Shown: piece after piece, positions 15,129 to 22,064 of the stretch
Position numbering within the stretch: the stretch's first letter is position 1
Layout of the letters: every line of letters starts with the position of its first letter
Assembly: GCA_965214705.1 (NCBI GenBank)
Contig: OZ243972.1
Span: 2,624,001 to 2,688,000 of the forward strand
Length of the DNA: 64,000 nt
Direction of reading: 5' to 3'
Source of the DNA: Alphaproteobacteria bacterium
Lineage (GTDB): Bacteria; Pseudomonadota; Alphaproteobacteria; UBA828
Program-made: the position numbers and the translations under genes
The notes under the pieces: generated by a model
Told to the model about the DNA's origin: nothing
Database searches by the model: none
Seen by the model: the letters and a program-made list of their open reading frames with translations, nothing else

Positions 15129-17489
15129 ATGGACGCGGCCACGAACGTTTCATTCGGCTGGCCTCGCGGCGACACCTTCGCGATGGCCATGGTCCTGGCC
15201 CAGATCGAGGACCAGTGCCGTAATTTCATCGGGGGACCGGGCGCAGGGTCACTGGAGCATGTTGTGGAGTTCACAGCCGAGGCACGCTATCCGAGCCAGA
15301 TCTGGGAGGTAGAAGTACCGCTCCGTTCCAATCGATTTGCCTCGGACGCCGACGTGGCAGCCCTGCGCGCCGATTTCCACAAGGTCCACGAAGATATTTT
15401 CGCCATCGCAGATACGAAATCGGAGATCGAGATTGTCGGCTGGCGCGCGAACGTGCGCTGCACACTCCGAGAGGGCAAGGATAGGCGGCTGGTCGAAGAT
15501 GCCGGCGATTTCCACTCATCCGCGCGCAGGACGGTCTACCTGCCGGATGTCGGCAAGATCGAGGCAAAGGTTGTCCGCCTCGAAGCGATCGACCGGGGCG
15601 TCATTGTAGAGGGGCCGGCGATCATCGAATCGTCCTTCACCACCGTGGTGGTCGAGCCGGGCGCTGCTGTGGAGAGGCGCGCTTCGGGCAGCCTGATGAT
15701 CACGCCCCCTGCTCCGGCTGCCAAGGAGGTCTCGACGCTGGGCAGCCTCGATGGCGTACAATTGGCCATACTCAACAAACGCATGGAGGCACTTTCGGCC
15801 AAGATGGCCAACACGCTGCTGCGCACCGGACGATCCGGCGTGCTGAACAGCGCGCGCGATTTCTCGTGCTGTATCGTGACGGCCGAACACCAGCTAATCT
15901 GCGCCTCCGAGAGCCTGCCCGTTCACGTGCTGCGCGGCGCCGACCTGATGTGCGCTTCCATGAAGGAGTTCCACCCCGAGGTCGCACGCGGCGACGCGTT
16001 TCTGCACAACTCGCCCTACCACGGCAACACGCACCCCGCCGACCACACGATCCTGCTCCCTGTGATCGACGACGGCGGCATCCACCGCTTCACCATGGTA
16101 GCCAAGGCGCATCAGGCCGATTGCGGCAACTCGATTCCCACGACTTATCACGGTGGCGCGCGCGATGTGTATCAAGAGGGAGCGCTGATCTTTCCTGCCG
16201 TCCAAATTCAACGCGACTACAAGGACATCGACGACATCATCCGCATGTGCCGGCTGCGCATCCTCGTGCCCGACCAGTGGTGGGGCGACTATCTCGCCAT
16301 GTTGGGTTCCGCCCGCATCGGCGAGCGCGAGATGCTGGCCCCCGGCAAGGAGGTCGGCTGGGACACGCTCGAGCGCTTCTCGGCGCAGTGGATGGACTAT
16401 TCCGAGCAGCTCATGGCCGAGGCGATCGAGAAGATGCCGGAGGGCCGCGCGACTTGCGAGAGCCGGCACGACCCCTTCCCTAACGCTGAGGAGGGCATTC
16501 CGCTGCAAGCCGTGGTCGAGACGCGGCCCAAGGACGGCATCATCGAGGTGGACTTGCGCGACAACCCGGACAGCTATCCGTGCGGACTCAATCTGAGTCG
16601 GGCAAGCTCAGAGAGCAACGCTCTGCTCGCCGTGTTCAACGGAATTCCGGACCAAGTGCCGTGTAACGAGGGCTCGTTCCGCCGTATCAAGGTGCACTTG
16701 CGCGAGGGCAGCGTCGCGGGCATCGCGGTCCATCCGACGAGCTGCTCGGTGGCAACGACCAATGTCGCCGACCGCGTGGGCAATGCCGTGTCGCGCGCGA
16801 TCGCCAATCTCGGTGACGGCTTTGGCATGGCGAGCACGGGCTCGCTCCAGCCACCCTCGCTCGGCGTCATTTCGGGTGTAAGCGAGAAGACGCGCGGGCC
16901 TTACGTGAACCAGATCTTTCTCGGTTGGGGTGGCGGTGCGGCGGCACCGCATTGCGACGCCTGGATCTCCATCGGCCATATGGGCAATGGCGGTGCTTGC
17001 CATCAGGATAGCGTGGAGCTCGACGAGATGCGCTTTCCGTTGATCGTGGTCGGTCGACACTACGTGACGGACAGCGGTGGCTTCGGGCGCACCCGAGGCG
17101 GTGAAGCCATGTATTCGGAGTTCGGGCCCACCGAAGCGGACATCGAGGTCGGCTTTGTGAGCGATGGCAACATATCGGCTCCGGAAGGGGCCCGAGGCGG
17201 CGGGCCGGGCGCACGTTCCAATCAGTTCCGCCGTGCTCCCAATGGCGATCTCCACCAGCTGGAACCCTGCTCCCAAGCGATCATCTCGCTCGGCCACACC
17301 ATCGTGTCCTATTCTTGCGGCGGTGGCGGTTACGGTTCGCCGCTTGAACGTGCGCCCCAGAAGGTGGCGAGCGACGTGCGCGAGGGGTGGGCTTCCGTCG
17401 AAGCTGCACGTGAGATTTACAAGGTCGTCGTCAGCGCGGACGGTGAACTCGACAAGGCCGCGACAGACGCACTGCGCCGCTTCGGATAG
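15129..17489 (+). pseudogene. 5'-truncated fused hydantoinase A/B (oxoprolinase-family) gene
   Basis: Only the A-subunit tail (ARYPSQIWEVEV, GPAIIES..TTVVV) precedes a complete B domain (DFSCCI, NSPYHGNTHPAD, AHQADCG, GGGGYGSPLER). The A-type ATP-binding motifs are absent. Confidence 0.8.
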
Positions 17490-17517
17490 CGTAGAACTCG
17501 GGCATAGGCTGCCGCCG

Positions 17518-17544
17518 AAAACTGTCCCGCCTCAGGGGCCCACT
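17518..17544 (+). repeat. Remnant IS3-family right inverted repeat, cut by IS110-B
   Basis: AAAACTGTCCCGCCTCAGGGGCCCACT resembles IS3/IS150-type ends (AACTGTCC...GGGG.CA.TCCA) as recalled, minus the terminal bases. Confidence 0.5.
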
Positions 17545-17987
17545 TCTGTAATGGGGCGTTTCCCGTCAAGCTCGATTTTCAACGGATCATTGTCGCGACA
17601 ATCGGTTGTTTTCCTGGCGTGGTGTAGGGGGCTCCTTCGGCTTGGCTGTGAGGCGCCGGCGAGGCGCGGAGGAGGATGCCCGCGTCAGGTTCAATGTGGC
17701 CGACCGCATTGGTCTTGTGCTTGACCAACGTCTTGAGTCCTTCGCCGGGTTCTCGCTTCTGTCCGTGGTCAGCGCATTGGCTGCCGACGTCATGCCCCGT
17801 CCAAATCGGTTCCCCAGTGCCTATCTCCAAAGCGTGCTCGAACGCGACAGGTCGGTTCGGCAAACAAGTGGGCCCACGTGCATCATCGGGGACCGCGTCC
17901 CGGCGAGGGGACACGGGGGGATCGCCCCCCTTCAGGCGCGGCTCTTTCCTCCTCTCCTCGCTGATTGCCGATGGGATGCAGCCGTGC
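17545..17987 (-). ncRNA. Putative bridge/seek RNA region of IS110-B
   Basis: Contains GGGCCCACT (complementary to its flank) and ACAGAAG (identical to its own end). Boundaries are approximate. Confidence 0.65.
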
Positions 17988-18216
17988 CTATGCCATCTGA
18001 AACGCCATCGCCTCGTCGCGCGTGAAGCGGAACTCGGTGCCATCCCGCCACATCTGGTGGAGCACCACGCCGATACGCCGGGCCAAGGCAACGGTCGCGC
18101 GCTTCTTGCCCCGAAGCTTTGACAGACGTAGCGCCCAGCCCTTCAGATCCTATGGGGCCGACTCGGAGACCGGCACTACGGTGCCGTTCTCGCTAGACCT
18201 CATCAGGAGACAAGAG

Positions 18217-19413
18217 ATGTCCCCAACGAACGAGACCGCCGCGCCGGTCAACGCAGAGCATAGCACGCTGTACGTTGCCATCGAGATCAGCGGAAAGAGC
18301 TGGGTGGTGGGAGTGAAGAGCCCTGCCAGTGATCGGATCGGGCTGCATTCACTGGGGCCAGTGGACGCGGCGACGGTCGAAGGGCTCAAGGAATTGATCG
18401 AGAAGCAGCGAGCCAAGGCTGAACAGGCTCTCGGCCGAGAGGTGCGTGTTCTGTGTTGCTACGAGGCGGGCTACCAGGGCTTCTGGCTTGTGCGCTGGTT
18501 AGATCAGGAGATGTCCATTGAGACAGTGGTGCTCGATCCGGCGAGTCTGCTGGTGAACCGAAAAGCGAAGCAGCGCAAGACGGATCGGATCGATGCGAAG
18601 AAGATGGTGCGCGCGCTACTGGCGCACGACCGAGGCGACGCTGCAGTGCTGAGCCGGGTGCGGGTGCCGAGCGTGGAGGAAGAGGACCGCAAGCGCCTGC
18701 TTCGTGAGCGTCGGCGGCTGGTGAAAGAGCGGACCTCACTGACGAACTCGATCAAAGGGCTGCTCAAGCTGCAAGGGGTCTTCGACCTGGCCCCCCGAGC
18801 CAAGGAGTTCGAGGAGGAGTTCGCGGAAGTGGTGACCGCGTACGGCTCACCGTTCCCGCCGCGGGCGCGTAAGGAGATCGAGCGGCTCAAGGAGAGGTTG
18901 TCCTTGGTGGAACGACAGCTCGCAGATGTCGAGGCCGAGCGCGACGCGGTCGCACGGTCGGGAGCCGACCTCCCGATCACGGATGTCTCGGAGGGGAGCG
19001 ATAAACAGGCGGCGGCGAAGATCGCAACGCTGGCCCGGCTCAAGGGGATCGGCAAAAACGATGCGACCCTGCTCACCAATGAGATTTTCTATCGCGACTT
19101 CCGAAACCGCCGCGAACTCGCGAGCTGGGTCGGCCTGGCGCCAACCCCGTGGGCGAGCGGTGACACGCACCGAGACCAAGGGATCGGCCGAGATGGCCCT
19201 GGCTGGGTCCGATCTCAACTCATCGAAATGGCGTGGCGCTGGCTGCGCCATCAGCCCGATAGTGCACTTAGCGAGTGGTTCGAAAAGCGCACTGCTGGCG
19301 GGCGCGGGCGCATCCGTCGAGTGATGGTTGTAGCACTTGCCCGGAAGCTGCTCATCGCCTTGTGGCGGTTCTCTGAAACCGGTCTCGTGCCGACGGGCGC
19401 CAGGATCGCCTGA
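18217..19413 (+). CDS. IS110-family recombinase (398 aa)
   Basis: RuvC-like DEDD variant (VAIEIS, CYEAG, KTDRIDA) and serine motif GLAPTPWASG; AGGAGA RBS. Confidence 0.94.
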   Translation: MSPTNETAAPVNAEHSTLYVAIEISGKSWVVGVKSPASDRIGLHSLGPVDAATVEGLKELIEKQRAKAEQALGREVRVLCCYEAGYQGFWLVRWLDQEMSIETVVLDPASLLVNRKAKQRKTDRIDAKKMVRALLAHDRGDAAVLSRVRVPSVEEEDRKRLLRERRRLVKERTSLTNSIKGLLKLQGVFDLAPRAKEFEEEFAEVVTAYGSPFPPRARKEIERLKERLSLVERQLADVEAERDAVARSGADLPITDVSEGSDKQAAAKIATLARLKGIGKNDATLLTNEIFYRDFRNRRELASWVGLAPTPWASGDTHRDQGIGRDGPGWVRSQLIEMAWRWLRHQPDSALSEWFEKRTAGGRGRIRRVMVVALARKLLIALWRFSETGLVPTGARIA

Positions 19414-19726
19414 ATCGTGAGACCGTTCCGTTCTTGCGTCAGCCGGACGCGGCCGGCGCTGGGCCGGGTGGCGTGTGGCCGGAGAACTGGCGGGCTGAAA
19501 GACGCCGACCTTCAGATGGGCCCCGCCTCCGGAACGCTGTGCCCGCAGCAAGCGGGATTGTGGGATGGAGCCAGCGTCTCGCCGCTGGCAACCGCCCGGA
19601 TAAGAGTTGGGTACGCGCAAAGCCGTGTGACCGGTGCAACAAGCGTTCCGATCTGGCAAGAGTAGCCGCCGATCCTGCGAACCCAGGGAGGCCGACACAT
19701 GTGGTAGCTGGTTCTGAATTTCTTGT
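19414..19726 (+). ncRNA. Putative bridge/seek RNA region of IS110-A
   Basis: Contains GAACTGGC and CCTTCAG (match the two target flanks) and ATAAGAG (matches its own end) within stem-flanked loops. Boundaries are approximate. Confidence 0.72.
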
Positions 19727-19970
19727 TTGACATTCTACAGCCCCATAAGAGCCAGTTCGGTCCTGCGCGGTTCAGCATCACCGTGGCGGCCTGATAGAGC
19801 GCCGTGCGCAGAGTTGCGTCGCCGCACTTCGTGATTCCGCCGACAATATCTCGTTCGCCGGATTGGTCCCGTCCCGGCGTCAGCCCCACCCAGGGGCCGA
19901 CATCCTTCGATCTTCGGAACCGATCGGGATCGTCAATCGCCGACATGAAGGTCAGCGCCACTGCGGCTAA

Positions 19971-20063
19971 TACGGTCTGACGGGGAACAGCAAACGTCTC
20001 AGCGGCTTCCGCTACTGGGTCATCCGCCACGGGCGCAAGGCGCTCGCGCGCCGCAGCCGCTAG
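19971..20063 (+). pseudogene. Short relic of group II intron maturase domain X
   Basis: YGLTGNSKRLSGFRYWVIRHGRKALARRSR*, which parallels the domain X seen in the 1240-1920 fragment. Confidence 0.6.
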
Positions 20064-21709
20064 CCCGGATTTCTCACGAGCGTCCATCGTTGGGTTGTTT
20101 GGTGTTTGTCGTGGGTTTGGTTAGAGAGTTGCGGTGTGGGCCGGGTAATGGCGCAGGAGTGGCGGTGGCGCCGGGGGCGCGGTTGAGGCTGGAGCGGGTT
20201 TTTGGTTGTTGGCGGGAGGGTGGCAGCGGGCCTGAGGCTCGGCTCAGGTGCATAATCGGGCGTGAGCACGTGCGAACTCGGGCGCGTGGGGTGCGCTTGA
20301 GGCCATGGCGATGCGGATGCGGCGGGTACTCAGGCGGACCTGGGCGCCGATCTTCAGCAGCTTGAGGCGGATCGAGCCGCAGGTAGCGCGGGCAAGGCGA
20401 GTTCCGGCGAGCGCGATGCGCCTGAGCGCTGCGAGCAGCACGTAGGCCATGGCGGCGAACCAGAGACGGAGCTGGTTGGCGCGCATGGTCTGAGCCGAGG
20501 TGCGGTCGGCGAAGAGGTCGAGCTGGCACTCCTTGATGCGGTTCTCCATGTCGCCGCGGGCGCAGTAGAGGGTCTCGTAGAGTTCCCGCCGGTCGATGGC
20601 GGCCGCGCTCAGCGAGGTGACGACGAAGCGGGGGTTGGCGCGGCCCGGCATCCACTCCGCCTTGCCGACGACACGGCGCGGGCGCGACCAAGTCTTGCAC
20701 GTGCGGTAGCGGAACTCGGTGAACAGCCGCGCCGGCTGGCCGCTCTCCCGCGAGCGGGCTTCGGCCAGGTCCAGGGCCGGTTGCAGGCGGTCCGTGAGCC
20801 GCGGGTTCCGGGCGAGCCCGAAGACATAGTCCACCCCGTTCGCCTCGCACCAGGCCATCAGTCCCTCGCGGGCGAAGCCAGAGTCTGCGCGCAGCACGAT
20901 CTCGACGGCGGGCCAGCGGGCGCGGATGCGCGCGACGATGCGCGCCACCTCTTCGGCCGCGCCGGCGCTGGCGTCGATGTCGGCCCGCCTCAGCTTGGCG
21001 GCCAGCAGGTGATCGCCGCAGAAGATGTAGAGCGGCAGGTAGCAGTAGCAGTCGTAGTAGCCGTGGAAGAAGCGGCCTTCCTGATGGCCGTGCAGCGGGT
21101 CGTCGGTGGCGTCCAGATCGAGGACCAACCGCTCAGGGGCCTGCCCGTGGGCGTCGAGGAAGAGATCGACGAAGAGCGTCTCGATCGCCTCAGGCTCATG
21201 ACCGATCCGGCGATAGCGATGGGCGCCCGAAGGCGCGTGCTCCAGCCGGTTCAGCGTCGACTTGCCCGCAAGCGGCGCACAGCCCGCACGCCCGGCCTCC
21301 AAACGCCCCAGCACCACCCCCAGCACGGGGTCGTGGCGCAGCGCGTCGTGGTCGATCAAGTCCTCGTAGCCCAGCGCGATCCCGAACACCCGCTGGCCCA
21401 CCAGGGTGGCAACGTCGTGCACCACACGAGAGGCCGCGCGCCCGTCCGAGAAGCAGGCGGCGAAGCAATCCACCAGTCCGATCGCCCGGTCCGTGGCGCC
21501 CAGCAGCAGGGCGCCCGCGTCCGAGGTCATCACCCCGCCGCCGAAGTCGGCCACCACATCACGCCCGTTCAGGCGTGCAAACTGCATCGCGGGCGGGCTA
21601 CACTCTGCAGGCATCGGGGAACTCCTCTGCAGCCGGTGAAGTCTTTGTTGCAGAAGAACTTTCTCACGAGCAGAGCCCCGATGCACACCATACTCGTGAG
21701 AAATCCGGG
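20064..21709 (-). mobile_element. IS1380-family element, complete
   Basis: 17-bp perfect terminal repeat CCCGGATTTCTCACGAG; CTAG duplicated at 20060-20063 and 21710-21713. Confidence 0.93.
20244..21614 (-). CDS. IS1380-family transposase
   Basis: TSDAGALLL, LDLDATDDPLHGHQEG, LRADSGF, YCARGDMENRIKE. Confidence 0.95.
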   Translation of the reverse strand: MPAECSPPAMQFARLNGRDVVADFGGGVMTSDAGALLLGATDRAIGLVDCFAACFSDGRAASRVVHDVATLVGQRVFGIALGYEDLIDHDALRHDPVLGVVLGRLEAGRAGCAPLAGKSTLNRLEHAPSGAHRYRRIGHEPEAIETLFVDLFLDAHGQAPERLVLDLDATDDPLHGHQEGRFFHGYYDCYCYLPLYIFCGDHLLAAKLRRADIDASAGAAEEVARIVARIRARWPAVEIVLRADSGFAREGLMAWCEANGVDYVFGLARNPRLTDRLQPALDLAEARSRESGQPARLFTEFRYRTCKTWSRPRRVVGKAEWMPGRANPRFVVTSLSAAAIDRRELYETLYCARGDMENRIKECQLDLFADRTSAQTMRANQLRLWFAAMAYVLLAALRRIALAGTRLARATCGSIRLKLLKIGAQVRLSTRRIRIAMASSAPHAPEFARAHARLCT

Positions 21710-21713
21710 CTAG

Positions 21714-22064
21714 CATCGAGGTGGCGCGCATGACGGCCCGCCCTGGTCGATCTCTTCTGCCGCAGCTTCGCGGCCCCACCTGCCGCCATCACGCTGGATA
21801 TCGACGATACCTGCGATGCCGTGCACGGCCACCAGCAGCTCTCGCTCTTTCATGCCCACCACGACACGCGCTGCTTCCTCCCCGTCCACGTCTACCAATC
21901 CGCTCACCAGCGCTGAGTTCACCACTCTCAGGTTACGCCTGTTCAAGATCGTCGCCCGCGTCGTCGAAAAGGTTACACACATCCAAATCCACTCCGCCTC
22001 GCCCTGTCCCGACACCGCCCTCTTCCGCCTGCTCGCAGGTCGCCTCTCCGCAGCAAGCCCCTGA
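21714..22064 (+). pseudogene. Internally deleted IS1380-family transposase relic
   Basis: ITLDIDDTCDAVHGHQQLSLFHAHHDTRCFLPVHVY joined to the C-terminal AEFTTLRLRLFKIVARVVE...SPCPD. Confidence 0.78.

Follow-up and report, generated by a model that had tools for sequence, protein, structure and literature searches.

We describe a predicted guide RNA in the non-coding region of IS110-B, a decayed insertion sequence (IS) in a 64,000-nucleotide (nt) stretch of the genome of an Alphaproteobacteria bacterium of lineage UBA828 (assembly GCA_965214705.1, contig OZ243972.1, positions 2,624,001 to 2,688,000), hereafter the window. IS110-B occupies window positions 17543–19961 (minus strand) and is what remains of an element of the IS1111 type, which belongs to the IS110 family. 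With a probability of about 0.9, we conclude that this region encodes a seekRNA (bridge RNA) that guides the DEDD transposase to a site within the terminal inverted repeats (TIRs) of IS3-family elements, and that carries donor guides for the element's own ends. The analysis established the anatomy of the element, the covariation of guides with flanks and with ends, a conserved RNA structure, the predicted flank and its empty sites, the IS3 identity of the target, and the specificity of orientation.

A flank foretold from the predicted guide

Read on the minus strand, IS110-B ends ...CCCCATTACAGAAG at 17543 and abuts TGGGCCCC (also written ...CGCCCCATTACAGAAG at 17543, with flank TGGGCCCCTGAGGCGGGACAGTT from 17542). 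An earlier note on this DNA had placed the end at this position, and full copies of a sibling element together with empty sites fix both the boundary and the AG shared with the target. The 447 non-coding nt between the stop codon (17990–17988) and the tip contain the three motifs singled out in that note, namely, GGGCCCACT at 17875–17867, CTTTGGAGAT at 17832–17823, and ACAGAAG at 17762–17756. We refer to the two target patches as guide T (GGGCCCACTT), complementary to the core and right flank, and guide B (TTTGGAGAT), which is identical to the left flank plus AG plus the AT that opens the element and so would pair with the bottom strand. The coordinates of all features are collected in Table 1.

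The window copy is inactive, owing to a transposase gene that is split by a second IS1111-type element and has lost its 5′ part. Two gene pieces (19961–19750 and 18146–17991) are held apart by the 1603-bp plus-strand element IS110-A, and everything 5′ of about residue 208 is gone, N-terminal domain included. From the guide, the lost upstream flank had been predicted to end (T)TGGAG, and this is what we observed elsewhere. A genome of the same genus (G033, the same as G001) carries four complete 1636-bp IS110-B copies with the same first guide and the same end; all four have the foretold flank, with left flanks ending GATTGGAG, ATATGGAG, TATTGGAG, and GATTGGAG and right flanks beginning TGGGCCCCTGGGG. 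The element-specific non-coding part was matched in six of the 44 family genomes searched (the window's own included), with complete copies only in G033. The same flank is seen at uninterrupted sites, two in the window's genome (...GCATGGAG|TGGGCCCC at C1:701171 and ...GCATGGAG|TGGGCCCT at C1:3531546) and two in G033 (...ACTGGAG|TGGGCCCC and ...TCTGGAG|TGGGCCCC). Empty sites have a single AG, and filled sites have AG at both junctions.

The target belongs to an IS3-family element. Next to the sites in the window's genome come the last codons of an IS3-type OrfB, in reverse orientation (...YNERRLHSALGYLSPNRFEEE...). A tblastn search of that genome with the OrfB tail yielded no full-length IS3 of the target type (four short matches, remnants only), and the complete IS3 was therefore taken from G033. 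One complete copy there (L099) has OrfA at 1270–1659 and an overlapping OrfB at 1488–2453; against NF033516 ("IS3 family transposase"; cut-off 160), OrfB reaches 310.7 bits, and it scores 91.2 bits against PF00665 (rve integrase core), and OrfA scores 35.7 bits against PF01527 (HTH_Tnp_1). The inverted repeat begins TGTCAATCGG...; the left repeat (IRL) of L099 and the right repeat (IRR) of L098 both begin TGTCAATCGGC and are alike for ∼57 nt, through ...GA(T/C)TGGAGTGGGCCCCTGGGG(T/C)CGGACAG. IS3-family TIRs begin 5′-TG, as these two do. The insertion site, (T)TGGAG|TGGGCCCC, is carried by both IRL and IRR and lies 36 nt inside the ∼57-nt repeat. The earlier note, which took the target to be an IS3-family terminus, was correct as to family and inverted repeat but not as to the tip, and the string it offered as the empty site is part of the repeat, from its inner half.

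In all IS110-B copies, the transposase reads toward the interior of the IS3, in a repeat context that is either IRL-type, beside orfA, or IRR-type, beside the orfB stop. At the window copy, the first 26 nt of the adjoining IS3 remnant closely match (by eye) TGGGCCCCTGGGGCCGGACAGTTT, a sequence of IS3 ends from the window's genome and from G033, and the likeness fades before 17489, where a convergent plus-strand hydantoinase-like open reading frame (ORF) stops ∼50 bases beyond the IS110-B end. A scan of metagenomes for the right end gave nine contigs, seven of them flanked by the same IS3-repeat sequence (four distinct contexts). They show right junctions only, and none of the nine is a clean complete copy: L114/L116 and L117/L118 have only remnants of 83–117 nt, L120/L122 are contig edges, and L115/L119/L121 have a different relative beside a 41-nt remnant. 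A metagenome scan with the left end of the G033 copies gave no matches.

It could be argued that the true target is a generic repeated or palindromic motif, similar to a repetitive extragenic palindrome (REP), and that its location in an IS3 end is incidental. Other IS1111 members do target REP sequences, according to the parts of the seekRNA study covered here (PMC11187229); the window holds a remnant of 35 nt only, with no adjoining IS3 gene; and one right-end remnant context has a different flank. On the other hand, the IS3 repeat continues at all four complete copies, at the window copy, at a copy on a contig edge in another genome (G029), and on the seven metagenome contigs, and the site is present in each of the two repeats of a complete IS3. 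Moreover, only two exact copies of the 12-nt site GGAGTGGGCCCC exist in the window's genome (7.9 Mb), and one of them is an IS3 end. We therefore consider a REP-like target very unlikely.

Two arrangements of the element and its prey deserve mention. At C8:525314–526959 of G033 (L110, L111, L026), a single IS3 body has an IS110-B copy in each repeat, the two facing each other, so that the IS3 tips are parted from the body by 1.6 kb per side. L115, L119, and L121 contain a different relative, 83.6% identical over positions 1–1444, whose guide patches are GTGTGCACCCTT and GATTGAGAT. Unrelated sequence of ∼680 nt separates it from the final 41 nt of the IS110-B right end, next to which lies the IS3 repeat; the arrangement may be a chimera or a nested insertion.

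Predicted guides that vary with flanks and ends

The window's genome (three contigs) holds four copies of a sibling element, B′, which shares 83%–84% identity with IS110-B in the C-terminal part of the transposase and in the ∼250 non-coding nt that come first after it. One copy (C1:602265–603921; 1657 bp) is complete, with an intact 347-aa transposase; another has its full length but carries a frameshift, a third is interrupted by IS110-A at the codon that is also interrupted in the window, and the fourth is a partial tandem. The B′ site has two uninterrupted paralogues, at C1:1342383 and C3:2755971. Comparison of filled sites (...ACCAG|ATGCCGTAATGGGGCG...CGCCCCATTACGGAAG|CCGCTCGCC) with empty ones (...ACCAGCCGCTGGCC) indicates that AG is shared as the core and that the target is not duplicated.

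An alignment of the five 3′ regions (IS110-B and the four B′ copies) revealed a conserved scaffold in which three patches differ. Guide T changes from GGGCCCACTT to GCTAGCGGCT, the complement of AG+CCGCTAGC, where the B′ flank is AG|CCGCT(C/G)GC. Guide B changes from TTTGGAGAT to (T/G/C)ACCAGAT, which is the left flank, AG, and the first two bases of the element (flanks ..ACCAG|AT). The donor guide changes from ACAGAAG to ACGGAAG, which is the end of B′ itself (TTACGGAAG). Each change is the one that an RNA-guide model would require, and no palindrome plays a part in any of them. The B′ site (..ACCAG|CCGCT.GC) lies in the 5′ part of a multi-copy gene (C1:1340802–1342496, minus strand, with paralogues such as C3:2755971), whose product (N-terminal ...HYFEADGYYAKGDPEHRKASGWCGEAAALMGL...) we take, by eye, to be similar to a MobF/TrwC-type conjugative relaxase. 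The partial tandem (C3:1724218–1725001, minus strand) ends ...TTACGGAAG|CCGCCAAGGCAACC and has a second right end 150 nt further; its flank is an internal piece of B′'s own non-coding region and resembles the B′ target (AGCCGCC vs. AGCCGCT).

We extended the comparison to the best 80 of 508 confirmed loci, with transposases 71%–96% identical, plus two complete copies from the window's genome (82 in total). Ends were placed in 70 loci; the motif search missed the ends of the other 12, which were left out. Excluding rows with a left flank shorter than 14 nt and collapsing duplicates gave 66 guide/target combinations and 33 distinct guide pairs. The proposed guide layout was borne out: The complement of core plus right flank, a hairpin, the left flank plus core plus the first two bases of the left end, and a copy of the element's own right end recur in this order in 33 distinct relatives, each with its own sequences. 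Counting exact, mismatch-free matches that touch the core, guide T was complementary to the reconstructed target over at least 7 nt in 22 of 66 cognate pairs compared with 19 of 2112 non-cognate pairs, and guide B was identical to it over at least 6 nt in 28 of 66 compared with 23 of 2112; the relatives are kin, so these ratios overstate the statistical weight and are not probabilities. Guide-versus-target covariation, which the earlier note had proposed as a check, is evident.

For 18 of the 33 groups (guide T) and 15 of the 33 (guide B), the best cognate match exceeded the 99th percentile of the same guide's non-cognate matches. The longest matches were 12 nt (L085), 11 nt (the C1:602265 copy of the window's own genome), and 10 nt (L031, L038, and L046). 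The donor guides behave similarly. Right-end guide variants ACGGAAG, ACAGAAG, ACGAAAG, and ATGGAAG each co-occur with a right end of the same sequence, exactly so in eight of 10 distinct combinations, and the left-end guide variants GGCAT and GGTAT track, less cleanly, left ends ATGCC and ATACC.

A consensus fold of 35 distinct sequences (RNAalifold) leaves guides T and B unpaired within a single stem-bounded loop, with a hairpin between them. Across the 35 rows, 97.3% of cells were paired, compared with 26%–37% when partners were slid, and 13 pairs had changes on both sides, compared with 5.7 ± 1.8 in shuffles (observed value reached in none of 500). In the outer stem (helix 4), 99.0% of cells were paired and four pairs had double changes; helix 7 has AU at pair 195:218 in 18 rows but GC in 15 rows. 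Outer-stem pair 72:161 is broken in the window copy alone among the 35 rows, which fits the decay of a dead copy, and pair 63:170 is also broken there (G-A) according to the alignment.

One alternative is that the transposase reads the IS3 repeat by protein–DNA contacts and that the patches are passive copies of target and end, arising, for example, through recombination. IS3 repeats are themselves protein-binding sites, and the guide-RNA role is predicted from sequence. However, the patches keep the same positions within a scaffold whose base pairs show compensatory changes; one patch is complementary and the other direct, overlapping at the cut, as in reprogrammed seekRNAs (parts covered of PMC11187229); and transposases that are 84%–95% alike use quite different sites. 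Passive copying is accordingly a highly improbable account of these data.

The window sequence by itself makes the guide case no more than suggestive. GGGCCCACT occurs twice in the 64 kb (as the guide and, in complement, at the junction) compared with 0.52 occurrences expected, and two or more were seen in eight of 100 shuffles. A chance complementarity in a non-coding region without guide function has practically no probability left: The self-complementary GGGCCC does give part of the match for free, and a direct match of at least the observed 8 nt is unremarkable (289 of 2000 dinucleotide-preserving shuffles of the 427-nt non-coding region), but a reverse-complement match of at least the observed 10 nt is rare (18 of 2000), both together are rarer (six of 2000), guides that contain no palindrome match the respective flanks in the sibling and in 33 relatives, and the flank foretold from the guide alone is present in every full copy. 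What places the observation beyond chance is that the same three patches are hypervariable in a conserved scaffold and covary with flanks and ends in relatives.

Besides the kinship of the relatives, several observations weigh against the guide-RNA reading. Two of the nine metagenome contigs (one context) have a 117-nt right-end remnant beside another flank, CGGGTCTCTGG.... Under the exact-match thresholds fall 44 of the 66 cognate pairs for guide T and 38 for guide B, which may reflect mismatches, off-target insertions, or later change of the flank. For IS110-B itself, guide B has only 5–6 matched bases. The GGCAT donor guide is exact in only five of 10 distinct combinations, and part of it may be base-paired (helix 2) when the RNA is free. 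No Rfam 15 family matched window positions 17400–20200 at E ≤ 1, and the single-sequence fold of 17740–17990 was no more stable than shuffles (z = 0.26), for which reason structure was assessed on the alignment. Finally, two of four RNA-library runs gave nothing, and two gave contigs covering 17717–17944 and 17662–18146 that derive from relatives (85%–99% alike, mostly 90%–95%), may be DNA carry-over, and are no proof of transcription, strand, or ends.

Proposed mechanism and known systems

In the IS1111 group, the transposase co-purifies with a short RNA from the non-coding region that transposition requires, and the element passes through a circle in which its ends abut. By analogy with published systems, the IS110-B RNA would be transcribed, perhaps from a promoter at the circle junction, bind the transposase, and direct recombination. 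The hexamer TTGACG may be the −35 box of such a promoter; in the right-end tails examined, only the −35-like TTGAC is conserved, and there was no convincing placement of a −10 box. Guide T (GGGCCCACTT) would pair with the top strand of AG + TGGGCCC and guide B (TTTGGAG-AT) with the bottom strand of TTTGG + AG, the two overlapping at AG. GGCAT would recognize the left end of IS110-B itself and ACAGAAG its right end, both presumably joined to each other in a circular intermediate. Strands would then be exchanged at AG by the enzyme. Since both IS3 repeats carry the site, IS110-B colonizes IS3 copies and splits their ends. IS621 shows "handshake" pairing. Guide B has an extra AT and guide T an extra A, which agree with the product junctions and not with the target; these bases may take part in pairing of a similar kind.

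The family assignment of IS110-B is clear. A full copy (L025) matches PF01548 (61 bits; DEDD/RuvC-like N-terminus), PF02371 (84.4 bits; Transposase_20 C-terminus), and NF033542 ("IS110 family RNA-guided transposase"; 241.2 bits, cut-off 140), and the B′ transposase (P0002) scores 243.8 bits against NF033542. The transposases are 346 aa (L025) and 347 aa (P0002) long, and GLTPGRDQSG is found in the window fragment and in P0002. Full copies have ∼150 nt upstream of tnp and a longer non-coding region downstream. Subterminal inverted repeats in relatives are CCGTAATGGGGC / GCCCCATTACGG, and full copies read CCGTAATGGGGC ... GCCCCATTAC(A/G)G; the window has the right repeat only. With AG counted on the left, the 11-bp repeat has extensions AGATGCC (7) and AGA/GGA (3). 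Guide T (17875–17866) lies 5′ of guide B (17831–23), and they overlap at AG in the target. As is usual in the IS1111 group, insertion is at a specific site in a single orientation and leaves the target unduplicated.

These features agree with the IS1111 family as described in the parts covered of PMC11187229: transposases of 330–350 aa with GL-P----S(t)G, a long non-coding region downstream of tnp, subterminal inverted repeats of 11–13 bp whose left extension is 7 (or 6) bp and whose right extension is 3 bp, and a seekRNA in which, from 5′ to 3′, a segment that complements the top strand precedes one that complements the bottom strand, the two overlapping in the target. Such seekRNAs have been reprogrammed experimentally (PMC11187229). 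Bridge RNAs were predicted in the right end of 93.0% of IS1111 elements, with donor-binding nucleotides in multi-loops, in what was covered of PMC11208160. The IS110 group proper (IS621-like) has its guide RNA in the left end, upstream of the recombinase gene, and subterminal repeats that are absent or 2–3 bp; IS110-B falls outside it, with a downstream guide region and repeats of 11–13 bp. That IS110-B is a new element of the IS1111 branch of a known RNA-guided system is well supported; the mechanism is not new.

The closest parallels, as far as the covered parts of PMC11187229 (Siddiquee et al. 2024) go, are ISEc11, ISPa11, ISKpn4, and ISPst6, which share with IS110-B a ∼346-aa DEDD transposase, GL-P----SG, a downstream non-coding region, and subterminal inverted repeats. 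The "natural reprogramming" of ISEc11/ISXne4 in the same source resembles the pair IS110-B/B′, siblings that keep the scaffold and change two segments. IS110-B differs from the ISEc11-type elements in its target, an inner IS3 inverted repeat and not a linear site, REP, or attC, and in being known from sequence alone; it also has two segments that match its own ends, of which the covered account of the seekRNA makes no mention (PMC11187229). ISEc21, an IS110-type element, is likewise RNA-guided with a natural target within IS3-family elements, but its non-coding region is upstream and its guide order reversed (PMC11187229). The IS621 bridge RNA (Durrant et al. 2024, PMC11208160, parts covered) has, like IS110-B, a target loop with two guides around a hairpin, donor segments, and a two-base core; in contrast, it lies at the opposite end with reversed guide order. 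The donor-binding part of IS110-B is not a simple internal loop, and the core, on the transposase strand, is AG. This looser donor architecture fits the multi-loop donor nucleotides of IS1111 elements in the same source (PMC11208160).

For the IS1111 branch, which has been studied less, IS110-B provides a clean test by nature of the seekRNA/bridge-RNA rule, with a lost flank foretold from the RNA alone and then found in another genome. Two siblings with the same scaffold and different guides, together with about 30 natural guide variants, could help to map the programmable positions of IS1111-type RNAs.

IS4321 and IS5075 are said to have been shown by Partridge and Hall in 2003 to insert in the terminal inverted repeats of the Tn21 family. 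This precedent, put forward in the earlier note, is apt: Like IS110-B, these IS1111-family elements reportedly enter the terminal inverted repeats of a different transposon at a fixed position and in a fixed orientation. Their prey is a Tn21-family (Tn3-type) repeat, whereas that of IS110-B is an IS3 element with a much longer repeat, entered 36 nt from the tip. Reported prey of IS1111/IS110 elements include REP, attC, and a linear site, and ISEc21 targets codons inside the transposase genes of IS3 elements (parts covered of PMC11187229 and PMC11208160). A literature search over titles and abstracts returned no IS1111-type element in IS3-family inverted repeats. Within that coverage, IS3-family inverted repeats join Tn21 repeats, attC, REP, and IS3 transposase codons on the list of natural prey.

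Nested elements and neighboring features

IS110-A has ends ATCCTATGGGGCC...GCCCCATAAG, a shared AG, and a 336-nt 3′ non-coding region. Its guide T, GAACTGGC (19484–19491), is the complement of G+CCAGTTC of the right flank, and its guide B, CCTTCAGAT (from ∼19509), equals the left flank plus AG plus AT. We found copies in the window and at C1:1326792–1328394, C3:617968–619570, and C3:1724983–1725068. Three of the four interrupt the same codons (P-N-W-L-K) of the IS110-B/B′ transposase gene, and the fourth lies in an unrelated place with the same TTCAG|AGCCAGTTC. Judged from these sequences, IS110-A would be an IS whose guide RNA directs it to a relative's transposase gene, and the nesting documents RNA-guided elements attacking each other.

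A broader and tentative idea, to which we give somewhat less than even odds, is that this clade of IS1111-type elements has reprogrammed its guides so as to specialize on sites that are functional and conserved in other mobile elements, its own kin included. There would then be three tiers of RNA-guided parasitism, in which IS110-A guides address a conserved stretch of the IS110-B/B′ transposase gene, IS110-B addresses both IS3 repeats, and B′ addresses the relaxase-like gene. If true, these elements would be hyperparasites that immobilize their hosts while riding them, and guide turnover would be driven by the local repertoire of mobile DNA.

Table 1. Features of IS110-B and its surroundings in the window
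Feature	Position	Strand	Evidence
IS110-B 3′ non-coding region, transposase stop to right tip, with guide (seek/bridge) RNA region	17543..17989	−	Sibling identity; aligned with 70 related loci
IS110-B transposase gene, last 52 codons, stop 17990–17988	17991..18146	−	Aligns with C-terminus of intact 347-aa sibling transposase
IS110-B transposase gene, internal fragment, ∼residues 208–280, GLTPGRDQSG motif	19750..19961	−	PF02371, 64 bits
Right subterminal inverted repeat CGCCCCATTAC (17558–17548), extension AGA (17547–17545), shared core AG (17544–17543)	17543..17558	−	Full copies
TTGACG, −35-like hexamer, 21 nt from right tip	17564..17569	−	TTGAC at fixed distance in 28 of 30 distinct right-end tails
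Predicted target guide T, GGGCCCACTT, complements top strand of A+AG core + right flank TGGGCCC	17866..17875	−	Sibling swap; cognate matches
Predicted target guide B, TTTGGAGAT, equals left flank + AG core + first two bases of left end (AT)	17823..17831	−	Sibling swap; cognate matches
Hairpin separating guides T and B	17836..17861	−	RNAalifold helix, columns 100–107/130–137; both-side changes in five of seven pairs
Outer stem, 17896–17880 with 17820–17806, around guide T, hairpin, and guide B (target-binding loop)	17806..17896	−	Helix 4
Probable donor guide GGCAT, complements left end ATGCC	17792..17796	−	GGTAT in relatives with left end ATACC; weakest of the four guides
Second conserved stem-loop, preceding ACAGAAG	17765..17788	−	Helix 7, 99.3% paired
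Predicted donor guide ACAGAAG, equals last 7 bases of IS110-B	17756..17762	−	End variants co-occur with matching guide
Remnant (∼35 nt) of inner part of IS3 right inverted repeat, right half of target	17508..17542	−	Match to TGGGCCCCTGGGGCCGGACAGTTT by eye
IS110-A, second IS1111-type element, 396-aa transposase, own 3′ non-coding region, inside IS110-B transposase gene	18147..19749	+	Same site in two sibling copies

Finally, we noted two features upstream of the IS110-B fragment. Within 19965–20100 (minus strand), ∼90 nt match C1:727150–727252 at 93%, and beyond them ends a multi-copy element that has a 511-aa ORF (20244–21779, minus strand); the last ∼45 nt of this element are matched five times (∼96%–98%) elsewhere in the genome.

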